Origin: Cladosporium halotolerans
Lineage: Eukaryota
Direction: 5' to 3'
Assembly (NCBI RefSeq): GCF_011745625.1
Contig: NW_027191452.1
Span: 992,001-1,056,000 of the forward strand
Length of the DNA: 64,000 nt
The position numbers and the translations under genes are program-made. The stretch's first letter is position 1, and every line of letters begins with the position of its first letter. Below the pieces are notes generated by a model that saw only the letters and a list, made by a program, of their open reading frames with translations, was not told where the DNA came from and ran no database searches. Of the stretch, positions 3,265 through 13,701 are shown piece by piece.

Positions 3265-5083
3265 TCACCTTACGATGAGCTTGCCAGGTGGCGCCCTCCC
3301 ATTTGAGCATTGGAAATCTGTCGAGATAATGGAGCCTCACCCCACTCGGCAACCATGAAGGCGCTCATTGCGCCGATGCGCAGAAAGCCTGCGGCATCGA
3401 AAAGCAGCCACCCCATATTGCTGCAAATCAACATCGCTCGAATCCCCCTCCCGATTAAAGGGGCGACACACAGTGAATAGGAGACCACCCTCTCCACTCA
3501 GACGATCGAACTTCGGACATAGCGCCGAAACAATTCTCAGGGGCAGTCCCGGGGCTTGAAACAACACCAATAAGCGGGCAACACGCCTTGCGAAGCAGCA
3601 CCATTGGGCTCTAATCTGCAGGTCCAAATCTGGAGACGGATTTAATTGTGTATTTCGATATAAAGATACAGATAAAGATAAATGACGATAATGAATAATC
3701 ACCTACAAGATTCGACGCCTACCTGCACAAGCCTAGTTCAAAGGAATGGAGACTCGAAAACGATTATGCCACAAACGCTTCTTCCTAATTTACGACATCG
3801 ACTGTGTGCGCAGGTCGTAGGGGACGTCGTGCTATCGAGTGCGAGTCATCCAGCCTTGAGTGTCTCAAACGACGAAGCATATCATCTCATGCAACCCAAC
3901 GGTCTTCGCGCGTAAGGTAAGCGACTCTGCATCAAGCATGAAATGCCGTGCTGCGGTGATCATGCAACGCGCATCAATGTAGCTATCTCAGAGGGGGATT
4001 TCAAGTCGCCACTACTTGTGGTCAAACTGGCCTTGAACATCGGAGCGCGAATCACTGACATAATGCTAGTTTCACGGTGCCACATGATTAAATTGCAGTC
4101 AAAGTCTCGAGAACAACTCTCCACCTATCATAAACCTGGGATGTTCTCGAACGAAATATGCTCTTCATAACATTGGTTCGCCACGGCTATCTGCGCTGCC
4201 AGTGGCTCAAGAAGTCAGCTTCATCGCTTTATTCAACGCAGCTGTGGGAAGCAACCTTCACAAACGTTGGACCCTAGTCTTTGAGATGCCTGCTCCCAAA
4301 GGCTCAGCGGGATGTTTATCGACGGCGGATCGTTGCAATTTTTGGGTCTGACACCCTTTGGTCAATCTAACTCGATGAGATGGATGTTCGGTGAAATATT
4401 GAAGGGCTGAGCTTACGTGACCCCAAAATCGGGCGATCACATCGGGCATCAACATCATCCAAACTGGCGGACAAGCCTCCGTTGCATTAGAGAAACGAGG
4501 ATTTTTTCATGCGCACAGCATCCGCCAGGAATGGGATTGCCTGGCCAAGGAGTGACTTAGGGACTTGCCAACATTCGACTCAGAAGTCCACATGGGCACT
4601 TCTATATGCGGGCTGCCACAATGGGTACGATCTATTCCCCGAGCTGCAGGCAATACTCGCGTTGGCGCTGCGATCTGGAGTCAGCAGTATGCTGGGTTCG
4701 TCCCTTGCTTCGTCCAGCTGCTTAGCACTATTGGATCCAAGGCCCAAAGCTACTGCATCGGGCCATCCCTTCCACCGGTCCATGAAATTTTGGGTGGCAC
4801 AGCCGCTCGTATGCACACAAGAGCTGCGTGACAGCACTCATCTGCTCGTGCTCGCCATCAGTCGTTACACCACATCCGCAGCTCGCGCAATCACGTTCAC
4901 GCGATCCCACGCAGCGCGGCGTTTCCGAGGCGAGTCGATCTTCGTCCAAGCGGTGGTGGGCCACAGCAGCATGTGTGAGCCCGGCTGCCCCTTAGTCTCG
5001 GTATGTAATCATGCCACAAGCGCTCGCTTTGAGATGTGTCACTTTCAAGTCGACGGCTTGATATCTTTCGCTGCTCGGTACAA

Positions 5084-6121
5084 ATGTCTGGTTCTGGTGC
5101 CCGGATGAACTCGCCATATGAGACTCTCGACTTCACCAACGCGTGGCAGGAAGATACACCTTTTGGGGCGTCCGATGCTTCGAGCGGTCCATTTCCAAAC
5201 TTATCGAACGGACATCTCGAAGCTACTGGCTTCCCTCACGGTACTGAAGCAGCTTCTATACCGCGCGAGTGGCTCACTCTGCACTCGACATGGCTACAGC
5301 AAGACAATCTCCACGAGATTCCATCTTCCACAACCTGCGAGTATCCTTACACCTTTCCATCATATACAACGGCGCAGGGCTATGCATACGACGCCGACAC
5401 TACTGAGCCTTCGGACATGGGCCACTGCAACTCCCAATCGTCTTTCTCCGAGCGTGACTTCGACCATCTGTACAATAACATGAACAGTCCATACGCGCAG
5501 CCTCTCGCCATATCCACAGCTAGCCCAGCGCCACAGCCAACACTCGACAACATGTATGCCTCCCAAGCCATCCAGACGCCGCATTCACCCAGCGTTTCAT
5601 CTCCCATTCCCCCAAGCTTCCAACGCGAGATATCTCACCCGGCCCACGCACCACCAGCAAAAGACCTGGCCGCCAACAACCCTTCCCTCCCTCGCCAGCA
5701 GCCGACCCGCTGGGCCGGCGACCTCTACACGCCAACCTACGTCCGCGGCGACGGCTCGACGCGCGCCGGCTGGTGCGGCAACTGCGCCTCCTGGCTCACG
5801 CTGAAAGACAGCGCCTACTGGTATCACATGCACTTCGCGCACGGCATCAGCTGCGCGACCGGAAGCTACCTGCCCAGCCCGATCCGCTTCCGGCCGACGC
5901 TCGGCGCTGCTCGAGGCGTGGGAGACGCAGAGGCGCTCTGCGGAGGCTGCTCGCGGTGGGTGCTCGTTGTGATGGGCGAGAAGGGCCGGACGGCTTGGTT
6001 CAGGCACGCGTACCGTTGCCTGCTGAAGGCGCCGGCCGTGAGGAAGGAGAGGGCGAGGGGGAAGAGCGCGTCGCCGCGGAAGGTTGTGGCCAAACCTGCG
6101 CTTCGTGGAGCAGCTAGATAG
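5084..6121 (+). CDS. Rua1/DUF4451-like C-terminal Cys/His domain protein (putative transcription regulator)
   Basis: Motif DLYTPTYVRG..GWCGNC..WLTLKDSAYWYHMHFAHGIS..EALCGGC..WFRHAYRC after a low-complexity N-terminus. ATG at 5084, or alternatively 5105. Confidence 0.75.
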   Translation: MSGSGARMNSPYETLDFTNAWQEDTPFGASDASSGPFPNLSNGHLEATGFPHGTEAASIPREWLTLHSTWLQQDNLHEIPSSTTCEYPYTFPSYTTAQGYAYDADTTEPSDMGHCNSQSSFSERDFDHLYNNMNSPYAQPLAISTASPAPQPTLDNMYASQAIQTPHSPSVSSPIPPSFQREISHPAHAPPAKDLAANNPSLPRQQPTRWAGDLYTPTYVRGDGSTRAGWCGNCASWLTLKDSAYWYHMHFAHGISCATGSYLPSPIRFRPTLGAARGVGDAEALCGGCSRWVLVVMGEKGRTAWFRHAYRCLLKAPAVRKERARGKSASPRKVVAKPALRGAAR

Positions 6122-6779
6122 GCGGCCACATAATGTCGGAAAGGGGTGGACGGGCGTGCGTTCACGGATAGATTCTTAGGGGTATACCGTTCAAGCAGGC
6201 AAGTTGATAATTTGGGCTCCTGTTCTGAGCTCTTTTGTATGCGTACATTGGCGGTTTAGCGAAGGCGCAGGGAGATCGCACTGCGGAGAGGTAGAAGATG
6301 TCTACGTTCGTTTGGAAGATACCTTGAAGACGTTGTGATTGCGGTGTAACAAGCTTTTGACGTACCTGAATGAAGTCATGACCATGCAAAACTACGGACT
6401 TACGCACCCGCTGCAACTATGCATGTTCGTTTCGCAGAAAGAGGAGCATCACCGAAATAAATTCGATAATCGAGACGAGAGCAAAAGCCAATTTTATTCA
6501 TTCGTTCATGTATAGTACAATGCTTACAGCAACGCAACAGCGCCTCCATGGCTAAGCGCTCATTTAATCAGCCGGGAATGCCCATCTGAACGCCCCAAAC
6601 TCGCAACCAAAGCATGTTCCCTGTCCAGTTGATGTCGAAAGGTCGACACTCACAAACGCCGTCATGACAAGGAAAAAAGACAAGACAGTCGTACGAAAGT
6701 TACGCAGTGGCGGACAGCCACTGATTTGCAGGTCGCCAGCTTTTTGTGTTGGCAAGAAGAGCTTTTCGGTCTCGATAAT

Positions 6780-9399
6780 TCAGCCACGACGCTTTGGCAT
6801 GGCAAGAGCATTCAGGCGTGCCATGCTGATCGATGTGCTCGACTTCTTCTTCTCATCCTTAGCACCGCTGCCGCTGCTGTTGGCGCCAGCCTTGGGCTTC
6901 ACGCCAAGAGTTGGCATCCTGGACGCCTTCGGCGCGGGCTTCTGAGGGCCTTTGGCCGGTGCCGGCGCGGATTTGACACGCTTCTTGGGACGGCTGGCGT
7001 CTTCCTCTTGGGCATCCTCCGAGCCGCCGTTCTCCTTGTCGGAAGTGCTCACGCTCTCGGCAGCCTTTGCAACGGTGTCGTTCTCGAAGTTGAACTTGCG
7101 CTTCTTGCTGCCCGGGGTGACAGTCGGAGAGAGCTCAGCCGGGTTTGCGTTCAGCTTGTTCTCGAAGTCGAATTTGCGCTTCTTCTGACTTGCTGCAACA
7201 CCGGAGGGAACAATCTCTGGTTCAGCGGAGACATGGCGTATAGTTGACTTCGCAGATGCTGGCGGCGCGAGCGAAGGGTTTCCGAAGACGATGCCATCTC
7301 CAGCACGGAATGTAAAGTCGCCTGGCGCAATGGTCTGGCGGCGACGGTCGTGAGTCGGGTTGGCGACGGGGCTGAAGACGGTGGGAAGCGTGGGGTAACC
7401 TGCGTTTTCAGACACCGATTCAGATGCAGCATCTGCCTGAGAAGGAGACGAGGCTTCGTCAGATGGGGTGAGACTCTTAGTCGCCTCACGTGCTTTTGTT
7501 GAGGATGAGAAATCGACATGCTTTCTGACCGGAGCAGTCGCTGGTGGTGGTCCTGGAAGCTTGGATGCCTTGTCTCCACCAAGTTTCGGCGGCGTTGCGA
7601 AATGCGTCCCAGCCGCAATCTTGGACGGATCGTTAGAATACAGACGCTGAGGCGAGCGGAGAATTGATTTGATCGGCGATGAACGAAGGAGATTGAAACG
7701 ACCGACGAGACTGTTGCCGGTACTCTTGACTGCGGATTGGGTGGTTTTAGCCACGAAAGGATTGTGATCTTGCGATGCTTTCGAAGGAGATTGAGAAAGC
7801 AAGGGCATGCTTGGCTGCTTTTCGCCCGCCCCTTCGACGTCTTGATCCTTGGTCACAGACACCTTGAGATGGCTTCGAGAAAGTAGCGGCGCCTGGGTCT
7901 CCTTCTTCTGCGGTGAAGGGCTATTGTCCTGGTCTGGACGTGAAGGCTTGTGCATACCAGATTTGGCGGGCGTACGTGCCAGGGCTGCGTCCATCATAGG
8001 CTTGGGCGGATCTTGCTTGCCAGAAGTGCCAACGGTTTCCACCTTGTTGGTACGAGGAAATAGCTCACCCTTAGCAGGTGATTTTGCTAACAATGGCGTT
8101 GAGGTGTCTGGGTGATCTTTGCTCGGCTCGGTGACGTGTGCCTTCGTAGGTGAGCGCGTGAGACTGAGACCGGGAATCTTGCTTGTGGTCTTCGTTGACT
8201 TGACGCTAGCAGCGCGAGCGAGCGATGACTGAGTAGGTGTCGAGAGATGAGCTAGGTTGGGGTAGCTCGGCTGTGCGCGTGACTCCTTGAGATGCTGTGG
8301 TGTAGACGGCAGGGACTTCTCTTTGTCGCTGCTCGCGGGTCGGGTGTTCGAAACGTCGTCATTATCAGCGCGCTTGACACGCTTGGCTGGAGTAGCTTCC
8401 GCGGCAGTAGCCTCACGCAAATTCTTCATGGAGGGTGCGCGCCGCAGTTGGCTGCCAGGCTGGGCAAGGTTGGGCTTGGATGACACGCGAGGGATACTCT
8501 TGGACGGCGTTCCATCCGTCTTGTCCAACTCCGCTTTGGAGGGGCTGCGCTTGAGCGATTTGCTCGGTGTCTGCGACGCAAGACTACGGTCTGCACCAGA
8601 AGCAGCAAGTCTTGTAGGGTCCTTGCGGTATGCTGAAGCGTGTCCAGCAATCGAGTCCATCTTCTGAAACTGCGCATCGTGCAGCTCACTGAACCTGCCC
8701 TTCTTGCTCTTCGGCTGCGCAATCTTCCGGCTCAACGCTTCACCCGACCATGCAGATCCTTCGCCGGCGCTCTTCATCTGGTCTTTGATACGCAGCGCCT
8801 CAGCGCGCTTCTCATCCATCAGCTTTTTCGCTTCCGGGCTAAGTTCCAGAGACTGCTCGCGGCGAAATGTGAATGTAAAGTCCGGTGATCTGAATGCATG
8901 CTCTTGCTTGGTTGTGCGAGACGGAGTCGCCTGTGCCTCAGCAAGCTTGCTGTTGCGCTTCGGAGGTTCGGTAGCAGGAGGCATGTTAGAAAATCCTAGC
9001 CAGCGCGCCTCTTCGCGCGGCTTCGCGGTGGACTGGTGGAGGTGCTTCGGGTGCATCTCCTCGAGCGGAGCTTCGACAGGAGCTGCAGACTTGGGGGTTG
9101 CATCTTGAGGTTCCACGGTCTTGACGCGCTTTGACGGGATGGTCGGAGTGTCTTGTTCGTTGGGGGAGCCTGGAAATGCGCCGGGCATCTCATCATTCTC
9201 GTTCAGAGAGGCGAGCTTGGCCGGGACGGTACATGGAGCGCGCGTAGTTGGAGTCTCGTGAGAGAGGGAAACCCTCTTGATAGGCTGAAACACGGTCAAT
9301 GATTTAGCCTGGGTTGCCAGACTGACGTACACGTGCGATATGGCATACCTGCGGAGTGGTCGAGTTGCGGCTCGACAGCCTGGTCGAGCGGCGAGCCAT
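6780..9399 (-). CDS. Conserved basic Ser/Pro-rich protein of about 851 aa with a NuSAP-like motif and KEN box (exons 9399-9349, 9284-6780)
   Basis: ATG 9399 (MARRSTRLSSR). Intron GTATGC..TTTCAG at 9348-9285 splices in frame into the long ORF. C-terminus SISMARLNALAMPKRR. The ORF-track N-terminus from 9626 is upstream/intron sequence. Confidence 0.85.
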
Positions 9400-9566
9400 T
9401 GTTGCGTGTCCGCAATGCGAAGGGCTTTCGCTCGTCGGAAAGTGTTGGCAAAGATGGGATGAGACAATGTTCGATTAGCCAGGACAGGAATGGAACAGCG
9501 TTCGCTTAGGAAGGACGCTTTGACTTGACCCGCTCTGCGATGATGTTTGAGCGTTGCGCATGGACA

Positions 9567-9575
9567 GTAAACAAA
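9567..9575 (+). promoter_or_regulatory. Canonical forkhead site GTAAACAAA, about 170 bp upstream of the 9399 start codon
   Basis: Exact match to the Fkh1/Fkh2 consensus. Function is inferred. Confidence 0.4.
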
Positions 9576-10134
9576 CCCCACACTTTCGGCCTCAGGCCAA
9601 GAGGCGCGCACAGCACGGCCCACCAATCAAGGCTGCGCGTCGAGATACAACATATACTGGACCTTGTAGACGACCAACCGTCCGTACCGCGCATCCTGGT
9701 GGAGCTCCCGACCTCTTACGCTCACAGCGAGTTTCTTCTTCGCCACAAGCAGTTGGACTACCAGCACACTTGGCAGGGAGATTCACACCACGCTTTTCCA
9801 TGGCTTTCCCGATCCTCCGCCATTTCGAGGTAGCTTCTCCTATAGCTGTCGAGCTGCGGTCGAGGGCTCAGTAGTCGCGTCGTCTATGCAGTCTCTCACT
9901 TGATCACAAGATGGCATGAGCCATACTCGGATAACTACTTGATATGGTTTCGATTCTATTATTGTCTATCAGTCTGTTTCACTGGCCGTGTCTACAGGGC
10001 ATGAGGCTGGCTGCTGCTGCGAGCCATTGCTCCACGTCTGCAGCAATATAAAATATACACCAACACCTCCCGAACCCACTGACAACCGAGACTTTGACGC
10101 AAATTCACGCACGACACCTCCACACGCTCTTTCG

Positions 10135-11782
10135 TCATTTGCGCGACTTCTCGAGATATGACATGAGCCACTCCTCGGTCCCATCTTCGTAGACACGCTT
10201 GGCTGGCTCCTACACAAAAGTCAGCTCATTGATGCTATAGCGCAAAGCAAGGAACACAATTGACACAGTGACTTACCAGGTCCATGTAATGAGTGTCGCT
10301 GAACCAGCAATTGTCCGCGAAGCAACCCTTGCCGCCAAACTTGCAGTGATGCCCAAAGGTGCAATCGACCTCGCGGCACGTATATTTGGCTGGGCAGGTG
10401 ATGGAACGGGCCTTGTGCTTCAACACGAGAAACTCACCAGGACTCAGCCGCTCGCCGTGAATATAATCGCAGTACTCGCCAGACGCACACTGGCCTGTAA
10501 GGTGATAGCTGTTACAACATTTGCCTTGCTCTTTAATGCGAGTGAGGTAACGCTTCTCCGCCCCGGGATCTGGCCGCGGAAGCGGGGGGTCGAGTCTCTC
10601 ATCGTCGACGTTGAGGACAACGTGGCGACGAGTCGTAGCCTTCTTTGGTGCAATATCGATATTTTTCGGTCCAGTGCCTTTACCAACAGTAGCCCAGGTG
10701 CTGGCGTCCGTAGAAGGAGCAGGACTAGTAGGTTTCGAGGAATTCATAGTGCCTCCAGTGCTCGGTGGGACATAAGCGGAAGCTGCGTTCTGCTTGTTGG
10801 TATTCGTGCGGACTGGCAGAGACACTGCCGGTGGCGAGAACGCAGGAGTGGAGCTTTGCCTGAAGGGTAGGTTGGTGTCGCGAAATACTCGCGGAAATTT
10901 GACCCGGTTGAATCCTAGTGCGACAAAGCCTGGTTCCGCAGGAGTCGTTTCGACGAGTGTGATGCGAGACGATGTCGTCCGGTCGCGCTTGAAGGGCTCT
11001 AGAACCGGGAGATAGCCGTTATCGTGGCAAGGCCCGAAGAAGATATGCTTGCACTGAGGCATCGGTAGAAACAGACGGAGAGTCTCGCGGATTTTGTGGT
11101 CGGCGCGCTCTTTGCCACTGCCGACGTCTATGAAGTTGAAGAGGGGATGGGTCAGGCCGAAGGCTCGTCCAAAAGCTTGGAGCTCGTTGGGGTTATTAAT
11201 GATGCCGCAAGCTTGGAGTTTCGTTCCTAGGCCTTGAAGGTTGAGCACAATGTTGACAACGATGTTCCAGTCCGACGCCGATGATTCTGGGTACATCTGC
11301 TTTAGCTGATTCTTGAGCTCCGCGTGTAGCTGAGACGCAGCTTCGGCGCCTCCATCCTTTCCTTGGGCATAGAGATAATTTTCGAACTACTCTTGCGGTC
11401 AGAATTTCTCGTGAACGGACGTGATGGCGAGAGGCTTACTATCGCGCCGTCGCCATCCAGCAGTACCATTGCGAATGGATTACTTCCCTAGATGGAGAGG
11501 TCAGCCTGGAAGACGTGCTGTTCGAGCTGATGCGTAGCTTGCCGACTCCTGGCGCATTGCCAAAAGCTCATTCTCTTTGACTTTAGCAGCATTGTACCAA
11601 ATACGACGAGACTCGACCTCGTTCTCGAAGTCGCCACACTTCTCCTGGTAGAGGACTTGCAGCTCTTGGTACTTCTGGACAAGATCCGCCACGAAGGCCT
11701 CGCGTTCTCTATCAGACTGGCGGAATGCTTCGAAGCGTTCCAGATAGTCTGCGGTGGGAGCAGAACCCTGATGCCCGTTCAT
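10135..11782 (-). CDS. Coiled-coil + NYN/PIN-like domain + tandem CCCH zinc-finger protein (exons 11782-11543, 11487-11440, 11386-10277, 10209-10135)
   Basis: Spliced product contains FAMVLLDGDGAIF, GKERADHKIRE, HIFFGPCHDNGY, then CNSYHLTGQCASGEYCDYIH and CPAKYTCREVDCTFGHHC fingers. The last exon ends EEWLMSYLEKSRK*. Confidence 0.85.
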
Positions 11783-12456
11783 TTTGATGGTGGATGGCGG
11801 CCCGCGAGCAGGCTTTGGCGGCCGAAAGTTAAAGGAAGAACAGAAATGAACAACCAGACGCAGACGGCGTCGTTTGCGTCTGGATGGAAAGATAGCTTGC
11901 TTGGGCTGACGGTGAAATGCAGGGATTCGATTCCAGCCTGCGCACAAGCGACTGGGGAGCGCGTGTGGCGTGCCGCCGGTCAGCGCGCGCTATGTATGCG
12001 CTTGACTTGCAGCTCTGCTTTTCGTCTTTCACTTCATTGGTCCATCTCGTTTGCTGAGAGGAGTGTGCGACCGTCTGCAGTGGCATGCAGTGAGCGTTCG
12101 TTCTTGGACGAAAAAATTTCGTGTTCGCCAGGTTCGTTGCGTGCAGCTACCACCATCCGGAAGTTTGCAGGAACAACGGCTCTCTACTGGAAATCAATGT
12201 TAAGCTTCGCAAATGGCGAAGGTAGCGCGCTATTATATTTGGTAGATCCAGAAGACATTTAAAAGATGTTTCCAAGCATTCCTGACACATTTTCTCTAGA
12301 AACAATCAATAGGGTCTCATTGACCGCATTGTAATTAATTACACAAATGCTTCAAAGTGTGGGATCAGACCTTGCCTCTTGAACCCCTGCTACGTGACCT
12401 ATACAATGGCGAATTCGGCAGAGCTGGCAGGGCGCTGTCTCGCGTACATTCAAGCA

Positions 12457-13701
12457 CTACGCACCTCGCTTCTCAGCCTCCAATTTCCGAGCTCTCTCCT
12501 TGGCCGCCTTCTCGCGCTTGCCCAACTCTGCCTCAATCCCAATTCCACCAAAGACACATGCCACACCAACCCATTGCATTCCGCTAAGGCTGTGCCCAAA
12601 CCAGAGGACCGAGATAATCATGGTCAACATTTTCCTGGTCACAGTGACAGTCACTAAGAATAAAGATCCGAAAATTGACAGGGTGTAGACTGTCGAGCAG
12701 GGATTAGTCAAGCTAGATAGCATGGCACATGAGCAAGAGGGGGACTCACAAATGAAGAGTTGACCGACAGCTCCACAGACTGCGAAGCCGAGAACATCGT
12801 AGAGAATGGTAGGGTGCCTTTGATAGAAGGCAATAGCGCCGTAGAGCTCGCCGGCATTGTTGCCCATGCCCACGTAGGAGCCCAGACCCGTCTGTGCAAT
12901 GTATGGCGAAAGCAAAAGGAAAGCAGAAGTGAAAAGCGTCTGCATGGAGTTCAAAGCGCACATCATCTGCTGACCAGAGTAAGGCTTGAAAGTCGCATTG
13001 ATGTCATCCTGGGTTGAGTTCGTGAGGCCATCAAAGAGGAGGTTGATACCGAGCAGCATCAATCCGTAGGTCGAGTTACCGCTCTGACTGCCCTTCTTCT
13101 TTGAACCCGCTGGTTGATGCAAAGTGAAGATTGCCACGCCAGCTGTCACTAGCGCGACCACGGCGTATTTGTAGAAGGGGTACTTGCGTCGGTACAGAGT
13201 GACATGAAGGAACATGACCGGTAGAAGCTTGCAGGATTTGGCAAGGATAAATGTAATGTAGTCGACGTGAGCCAAGCTGGCATATCCAAACGGCGAGGAG
13301 AGGGACGATGTCAAAGAGACAAGCGCCAAAGGCCAGAAGATCTTCTTTGAAGGGAAGATAGGCTTGTCCGACGGTGACGTCCGGGTCTTCGCGGTGTAGA
13401 GCCATCCCAGAATCGCCGCGAATAATGACTGAATGGTGTTCACGACCACAGGAAATCTGAAAACTTCGGGATTTGCCTCGGTGCCATAGTTTGTCGTCGT
13501 GATTCTTTCTTGAAGAACACCCCAAGTCAAGAAAGCGGCATAAATTCCCGAAACGCAGATGACCAGATTCACAAGGCTTCCGCTGGATTTACTGTCTTCG
13601 GTTTGGGAGAGTGCAGCATTTTGCTTGTTTGATTTGAGATTGCCAGTCGTGGGCTCGGGCGCTTTGCCATTTCGTTGACGAAGACTGCCGTTGGCAGCCA
13701 T
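12457..13701 (-). CDS. HUT1: UDP-galactose transporter homolog 1 (UAA family, SLC35B1-like); one intron 12749-12690
   Basis: Motifs GIYAAFLTWGVLQERI, LAKSCKLLPVM, LLFDGLTNSTQD and VTVTRKMLT. Multiple TM helices. GTGAGT..CAG intron. Confidence 0.93.
   Translation of the reverse strand: MAANGSLRQRNGKAPEPTTGNLKSNKQNAALSQTEDSKSSGSLVNLVICVSGIYAAFLTWGVLQERITTTNYGTEANPEVFRFPVVVNTIQSLFAAILGWLYTAKTRTSPSDKPIFPSKKIFWPLALVSLTSSLSSPFGYASLAHVDYITFILAKSCKLLPVMFLHVTLYRRKYPFYKYAVVALVTAGVAIFTLHQPAGSKKKGSQSGNSTYGLMLLGINLLFDGLTNSTQDDINATFKPYSGQQMMCALNSMQTLFTSAFLLLSPYIAQTGLGSYVGMGNNAGELYGAIAFYQRHPTILYDVLGFAVCGAVGQLFICESPSCSCAMLSSLTNPCSTVYTLSIFGSLFLVTVTVTRKMLTMIISVLWFGHSLSGMQWVGVACVFGGIGIEAELGKREKAAKERARKLEAEKRGA

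Follow-up and report, generated by a model that had tools for sequence, protein, structure and literature searches.

A filamentous-ascomycete protein family with probable kinship to the spindle proteins NuSAP and She1

The window analysed here, a stretch of 64,000 nucleotides (nt) from Cladosporium halotolerans, carries on its reverse strand a two-exon gene whose 851-residue spliced product is identical to a database protein of this dothideomycete, WHR41_00364 (P0002). Exactly the 64 nt of the intron are missing from the contigs of two of four sequencing runs, both of which are only presumed to be RNA; a single contig covers 6479-9500 with the intron joint as its sole joint, and the splice joint was not seen in runs X14 and X10. 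A genome search with the core of the motif described below returned this gene alone and no paralogue. The product is strongly basic (pI 10.1) and, as predicted by AlphaFold, largely disordered: the predicted local distance difference test score (pLDDT) lies below 50 for 707 of 851 residues (83%), the predicted template-modelling score (pTM) is 0.23, and in place of a globular fold there are only isolated short helices, at residues 167-189, 217-230, 369-376 and 838-845. Whole-protein searches of Pfam, PDB sequences and Atlas were uninformative. UniRef and Atlas clusters label the P0002 family 'Erythromycin esterase' or 'related to glucan 1,4-alpha-glucosidase', and it is on these names that an enzymatic identity would depend; against the non-globular prediction, a Pfam search that found no enzyme domain and a sequence search of the PDB that was empty at E 10, such an identity has next to no probability.

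The original prediction had read this gene as an unrecognised fungal counterpart of the mitotic spindle protein NuSAP, pointing to a core motif at 8649-8696, a KEN box, a KKRKF pair, CDK repeats and a basic disordered chain, and all of these are present. The core, F-x3-H-x3-F-x-K-M-[DE]-S-I, lies at 8649-8693 (residues 215-229) and occurs once in the window; the sequence RFSELHDAQFQKMDSI lies at 8649-8696. In place of the vertebrate NuSAP1 motif quoted there, the Pfam NUSAP profile (PF16006; 297 positions, curated cut-off 26 bits) served for comparison, with 24,736 models searched. NUSAP is the first or only Pfam match of the fragments of the window protein that hold the whole motif, at 15.1-21.1 bits (individually 17.1 bits, E 0.005; 20.6 bits, E 4e-4; 21.1 bits, E 3e-4), all below the cut-off, and when the protein was tiled, only the 2 of 15 tiles with the whole motif matched it. 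These matches support the proposed NuSAP-like family reading. Metagenomes scanned with a DNA pattern yielded 102 loci, most of them chance hits (stops, unrelated frames) and some of them fungal; six of eight fungal locus fragments match NUSAP, three of them above the cut-off, versus none of five unrelated frames with the same DNA pattern. The locus set leans toward NuSAP because the pattern was built from the quoted vertebrate motif, a bias that the unrelated-frame control limits.

Higher scores come from mushrooms. The 43-residue motif region found three fungal matches, and phmmer with the 36-residue motif returned ten rows, nine of them mushroom-type; the tenth, a bacterial surface protein, was dropped, having no matched stretch. 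Outward searching with a motif-weighted alignment gave 79 mushroom-type relatives, those with names all agaricomycete. NUSAP is matched by 57 of the 79 at E <=0.1 (best E 1.2e-7, up to 30.9 bits), and 13 already bear an automatic PF16006 label, so that databases already contain a fungal match to NuSAP. A SAP domain occupies residues 14-47 in five of the ten phmmer rows (Agaricales; E from 2e-4 to 0.02, below the cut-off); UniRef names four of these 'SAP domain-containing', and SAP lies upstream of the motif in five motif-bearing loci. The test against Pfam NUSAP that had been proposed thus came out favourably, in that mushroom relatives pass the cut-off and carry an N-terminal SAP; the Cladosporium protein itself, however, stays below the cut-off and is without SAP.

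Mould and mushroom families meet at the motif. It is the only match that hhalign finds between them (E 5e-5 and 1.6e-6; probability 67% and 90%). Scored with a hidden Markov model (HMM) built from mushroom proteins only, all 120 mould proteins surpass the best of 2,520 shuffles, and for 117 of the 120 the match falls on the motif. In the reverse direction, a mould-only HMM gives 66 of the 67 mushroom proteins compared a higher score than any of 2,077 shuffles, with a maximum of 47.7 bits; this comparison left out 12 of the 79 relatives, which had no pattern match. AlphaFold predicts isolated helices only (pTM 0.25) for a mushroom relative too. Could the resemblance be chance, the gene encoding a nuclear protein that is basic and disordered but plays no part at the spindle? 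Single-protein scores are indeed sub-threshold, and E 3e-4 is modest when picked post hoc from a 64-kb window. Relatives nevertheless surpass the Pfam cut-off and carry SAP; for the mushroom proteins chance is unlikely because two elements, SAP and motif, occur in NuSAP order; and the mould proteins keep their KEN, CDK, SxIP and PP1 motifs far above shuffles. We hold this explanation to be very unlikely.

A second Pfam profile, Msap1 (PF17077, the budding-yeast She1 family; cut-off 27 bits), falls on the same motif. It is matched by 13 of the 79 mushroom relatives, at 12.4-21.7 bits (best E 1.2e-4, 21.7 bits), against a background in which 15 other families match 1 of 79 each. The register is fixed: the first F of the motif falls on position 27 of NUSAP and on position 77 of Msap1, where the alignment begins at 75-77, and the helix upstream of the mushroom motif aligns to Msap1 27-37 (start 27-28). 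Locus L080 matches NUSAP and Msap1 alike; Msap1 is the sole match of the ascomycete-type motif of L077 (E 0.038), and NUSAP is matched by L024, a relative of L077. The original prediction overlooked this She1 match, as it did the PP1-docking pair considered below. Msap1 matches on the NUSAP motif in the same register are, at the level of profile comparison, what is new here.

She1 is a spindle microtubule cross-linker, dynein inhibitor and Sli15 binder (PMC5584168, PMC5732302). Two conserved N-terminal motifs, PISH1 (ahead of residue 89) and PISH2 (inside 90-126), are required for spindle stability, for normal Sli15/INCENP binding and for exclusion of Ipl1/Aurora B from the metaphase spindle, and residues 1-212 do not bind microtubules, 194-338 both binding and cross-linking them (PMC5584168). 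From order and profile position we infer that the upstream helix may correspond to PISH1 and the motif to PISH2. In NuSAP, the minimal region for microtubule binding is 243-367, and fragment 141-240 shows no binding (PMC2172854); the motif would fall in 141-240, because it stands at 27-41 of the 297-position profile. By this analogy NuSAP and She1 are built alike, an N-terminal part without microtubule binding being followed by a part that binds, and microtubule binding probably does not reside in the shared motif.

If Msap1 weakly matches any basic helix, the NuSAP link would be real and the She1 link spurious. Every Msap1 score is below the 27-bit cut-off, the mere 13 matching relatives are mutually related, and since no fragment of the window protein matches Msap1, C-terminal fragments included, its She1 link is transitive. 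Yet a single register holds across two separate conserved elements, which stand in the same order as She1's two N-terminal motifs (before 89; 90-126); the background families match 1 of 79; and the ascomycete-type motif of L077 matches Msap1 independently. A spurious She1 link strikes us as distinctly unlikely, and its NuSAP part in any case overlaps the reading we favour.

In the ascomycete homologues the conserved words form islands within otherwise variable sequence (Table 1). Motif counts come from the 120 best of 246 homologues, whose named members are mostly Dothideomycetes, with 100 shuffles per protein; the shuffle comparison ignores kinship, and relatedness inflates the counts. The core motif is present in 98 of 120 homologues and in none of the shuffles, and KEN in 119 of 120 (shuffle mean 13.4, maximum 23). 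Full CDK sites number 16.1 per homologue versus 2.9 in shuffles; the window protein has 13, along with six L-x-x-[ST]-P-x-K units, the five originally listed being real but one short of the true count. Two other details needed correction: KEN is where it was placed, but DKEN at 7029-7037 slipped by one codon and spans 7029-7040; and of the duplicated KKRKF(D/N)FEN both KKRKF(D/N)FE copies exist (residues 718 and 744), but the duplication is not general, at least two copies occurring in 51 of 120 homologues. Where SILK- and RVxF-type motifs occur together, the latter lies 36-50 residues downstream in 112 of 113. In the more distant locus L015, SILR, KHVDF and DKEN are retained together with the C-terminal motif. 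Loci L024 and L049 retain the core and the C-terminal motif without KEN or SILK, and their tails are basic, with a terminal W-K after RLxxLAxPK. PG[AG]F and YPxL words are present in mould and mushroom families alike (P0122-P0134 included). The LxxLxE word is not claimed as a B56 site, its frequency being too near chance, and the L-x-x-P-T-x-S-S-L-A motif is, by resemblance, a candidate microtubule contact. The class names of these motifs are established ones. They are also used as given in PMC6363451.

Table 1. Features of the gene and its product in the window; fractions are homologues with the motif, followed by the shuffle value.
Feature	Positions	Strand	Residues	Remarks
Exon 1	9349..9399	(-)	1-17	Same as start of database protein P0002
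Intron	9285..9348	(-)		64 nt, GT..AG; absent from contigs of 2/4 sequencing runs
Exon 2	6780..9284	(-)	18-851	834 aa plus stop
LxxLxE, possible PP2A-B56 site, weak	9198..9215	(-)	41-46	94/120 vs 56
MPGAF motif	9174..9188	(-)	50-54	100/120 vs 0.9; like words in mushroom relatives
Conserved helix	8769..8837	(-)	167-189	Best-predicted element (AlphaFold); positional equivalent of mushroom helix aligned to She1 profile 27-37
NuSAP/She1 motif helix	8622..8711	(-)	helix 217-230	Pfam NUSAP profile 21-50, E 0.005 to 3e-4
LKRSPSK, basic CDK site after motif	8535..8555	(-)	261-267	Nearly invariant in alignment A4; hhalign pairs it with mushroom KKRKSS
L-x-x-P-T-x-S-S-L-A motif	8214..8252	(-)	362-374	Strict pattern 65/120; similar in 4/5 long mushroom proteins
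SKIP, EB1/Bim1-type SxIP motif	8172..8183	(-)	385-388	SxIP 100/120 vs 30.9
Five L-x-x-[ST]-P-x-K CDK repeats	7668..8162	(-)	392-556	6.7 per protein vs 0.1
Nearly invariant block, SILK-type PP1 motif SILR (7656-7667) at start	7590..7670	(-)	556-582	SILK-type 118/120 vs 4.2
RKHVDF, RVxF-type PP1 motif	7509..7526	(-)	604-609	119/120 vs 15.0
KKRKF copy 1, like a nuclear localisation signal (NLS)	7161..7184	(-)	718-725
KKRKF copy 2, NLS-like, the conserved one	7083..7106	(-)	744-751	K745-R746-K747 invariant in alignment A4
DKEN box, candidate APC/C-Cdh1 degron (APC/C, the anaphase-promoting complex/cyclosome)	7029..7040	(-)	766-769	KEN 767-769; invariant in alignment A4
C-terminal R-L-x-x-L-A-x-P-K helix	6792..6818	(-)	840-848	115/120 vs 0.1; also in L015, L024, L049

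For the putative PP1 dock, residues 548-620 of the window protein were modelled with the PP1 of the same genome, given as three exon chains. The complex scored 0.65, the best of three controls 0.00; in calibration, 51 of 78 solved pairs attained the score mark, as did 2 of 108 mismatched ones, the calibration set being unlike the modelled job. No less than 75% of contacts agree between runs, with partner pLDDT at least 48, and in the model SILR 557-560 sits on PP1 residues 53-59, the known SILK surface. The block after SILR is predicted as a small ordered element (pLDDT 71-84) that contacts PP1 in the model, and may form an extended PP1-binding module. Our best reading is that the mould form lost SAP and acquired a conserved candidate PP1 site (SILK/RVxF).

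Several further points weigh against placing the gene with NuSAP and She1. As a whole the Cladosporium protein has no NUSAP match, only its motif fragments matching and those below 26 bits, and none of 27 whole ascomycete proteins matches NUSAP or Msap1. The similarity is confined to about 30 residues. SAP was not found in the 120 ascomycete proteins or in window positions 6001-12500 (best 2.6 bits), and C-terminal tiles gave no profile match to a C-terminal charged helical domain (ChHD), just the short helix 838-845 being predicted there; with SAP and ChHD missing, the protein is classed as a variant rather than as a strict NuSAP. Searches from the fungal motifs (3, 10 and 79 matches) contained no identified animal NuSAP or She1, word-index and E 0.001 limits disfavouring 30-residue matches. 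A mushroom fragment searched against the Cladosporium genome hit another locus (E 0.04) rather than this gene. Five long mushroom proteins are without KEN and SILK and have only 3-5 full CDK sites, and because KEN and dense CDK repeats are absent or sparse there, these features, which the original prediction had enlisted, do not serve as evidence of descent. As to PP1, the second contact in the model is 576-580 and RKHVDF is not among the confident contacts; the model's pass may reflect memory of solved PP1 complexes; and the RVxF of fission-yeast Nsk1 proved non-functional (PMC3226469).

In an alternative, a shared short docking helix has been reused, or has converged, in several mitotic proteins, and the product is chiefly a PP1-targeting, CDK-regulated nuclear scaffold like Fin1, RepoMan or Ki-67 rather than a NuSAP/She1 orthologue. 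Ascomycete-mushroom similarity is significant at the motif only, the ascomycete proteins have no SAP, and the PP1-docking region, which the mushroom proteins are missing, is the block that varies least. A freely reused module sits less easily with the finding that, when the window and nine loci of the same genome were tested, a single gene scored for the motif, the core having no paralogue in the genome search; with the SAP-then-motif order of NuSAP in the mushroom carriers; or with the helix-then-motif order, as in She1. Scaffold and spindle jobs are, moreover, not mutually exclusive, and on balance we think this alternative unlikely. A better SAP-bearing candidate in the same genome was sought and rejected, none of eight SAP-like loci having the motif within 1.5 kb. 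Pfam NUSAP and Msap1 run against this genome gave no candidates at first look, which is little informative, as controls were equally silent.

We favour, as probable on sequence and analogy, the reading in which the gene is a filamentous-ascomycete member of a family of disordered, basic spindle proteins that includes animal NuSAP/Mink and budding-yeast She1: a cross-linker stored in the nucleus, switched by CDK and PP1 and degraded through APC/C. On this best reading NuSAP, She1 and the mould family would have one conserved helix in common amid otherwise disordered sequence. Starting from the observed gene, motifs and profile matches, each functional step that follows is drawn from NuSAP and She1. 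In interphase, the basic signals would keep the protein nuclear; during mitosis, spindle microtubules would be bound and cross-linked by the long, basic, S/T/P-rich stretch that follows the motif, and SKIP could confer plus-end tracking. CDK1 phosphorylation of the repeats might tune or block microtubule binding, an effect that PP1 recruited at SILK/RVxF would undo in anaphase, and at mitotic exit the KEN box would lead to removal of the protein. The shared helix would be a docking site for a conserved partner rather than a lattice binder, the partner most likely being Aurora B/INCENP, as reported for the She1 PISH motifs.

On the evolutionary side we go further with less assurance, at roughly even chances. 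She1 would be the budding-yeast orthologue of NuSAP, and a cross-linker with SAP, motif helix and basic tail would be older than the animal-fungal split; mushrooms would keep the full layout, and ascomycetes would have lost SAP, the filamentous ones adding the PP1 dock and KEN. If so, the best-conserved helix of NuSAP is She1's PISH2, and NuSAP may restrain Aurora B via INCENP and may slow dynein on microtubules like She1. A single family would offer a candidate answer to She1's missing animal counterpart, and would open the best-conserved piece of NuSAP, a widely cited cancer marker, to yeast genetics (INCENP binding, dynein regulation). It would also give a likely function to a misnamed filamentous-fungal family, hyphal spindle stability and nuclear positioning being dependent on dynein.

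NuSAP was first described as vertebrate-specific (PMC2172854), and a fly homologue was reported later (PMC4659922); the trypanosome proteins 'NuSAP1-4' are named for location. According to Zhu and co-workers (2017), sequence search had given no animal homologue of She1 (PMC5584168). In the papers searched PF16006 does not occur, and none of the titles and abstracts searched deals with a fungal NuSAP; no search paired She1 with NuSAP, a link that later or subscription papers may state. Term searches likewise find no mention of NuSAP in the She1 papers PMC5584168 (whose Fig. S1 may list filamentous homologues), PMC5732302 and PMC3374750, in a Cryptococcus deletion atlas (PMC11526942) or in a survey of microtubule regulators (10.1101/2024.01.08.573270).

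The neighbours of the gene are a convergent one at 5033-6118 (+), with a Rua1 C-terminal transcription-regulator domain (PF14616, E 7e-18), and an upstream one at 10238-11386 (-), with DUF7923 and tandem CCCH zinc fingers. Among the homologues, the Zymoseptoria tritici IPO323 model MYCGRDRAFT_78381 (P0217) has 70 aa compared with 799-831 aa in sister strains, and is probably a truncated annotation.

How, then, does the Cladosporium protein compare with known systems? Budding-yeast Fin1 and fission-yeast Nsk1 act at the spindle or kinetochore, are regulated by CDK and have PP1-binding motifs (PMC3226469), much as is proposed for it, but are likened to it by function rather than sequence, as functional analogues only. 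With vertebrate NuSAP1 and Drosophila Mink (PF16006) it has in common the motif helix at profile positions 21-50, a basic composition (pI 10.1 here versus 9.9 for mouse NuSAP; PMC2172854), KEN near the C-terminus, CDK sites and NLS-like clusters; the N-terminal SAP of NuSAP (PMC2172854), at residues 10-44 (PMC12173916), recurs in the mushroom relatives (14-47). The Cladosporium protein differs in being twice as long, without SAP or a ChHD-like charged tail, in leaving most of the profile unmatched (matches end by position 123 of 297), and in adding the SILK/RVxF pair, SxIP and tandem CDK repeats. She1 (PF17077, Msap1) has 338 aa, and the window protein does not match its profile directly; the relatives match that profile both at the helix (27-37) and at the motif (from 75-77), and a disordered basic region follows, the region through which She1 cross-links spindle microtubules (PMC5584168). 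The agaricomycete 'SAP domain-containing' hypotheticals (Psilocybe KAH9474702.1, Gymnopilus PPQ97269.1) differ in having SAP and a charged helix and in being without KEN, SILK and CDK repeats, but otherwise present the same combination of helix, motif and basic cluster, the L-x-x-P-T-x-S-S-L-A motif, the PG[AG]F and YPxL words and a long basic tail with SxIP.

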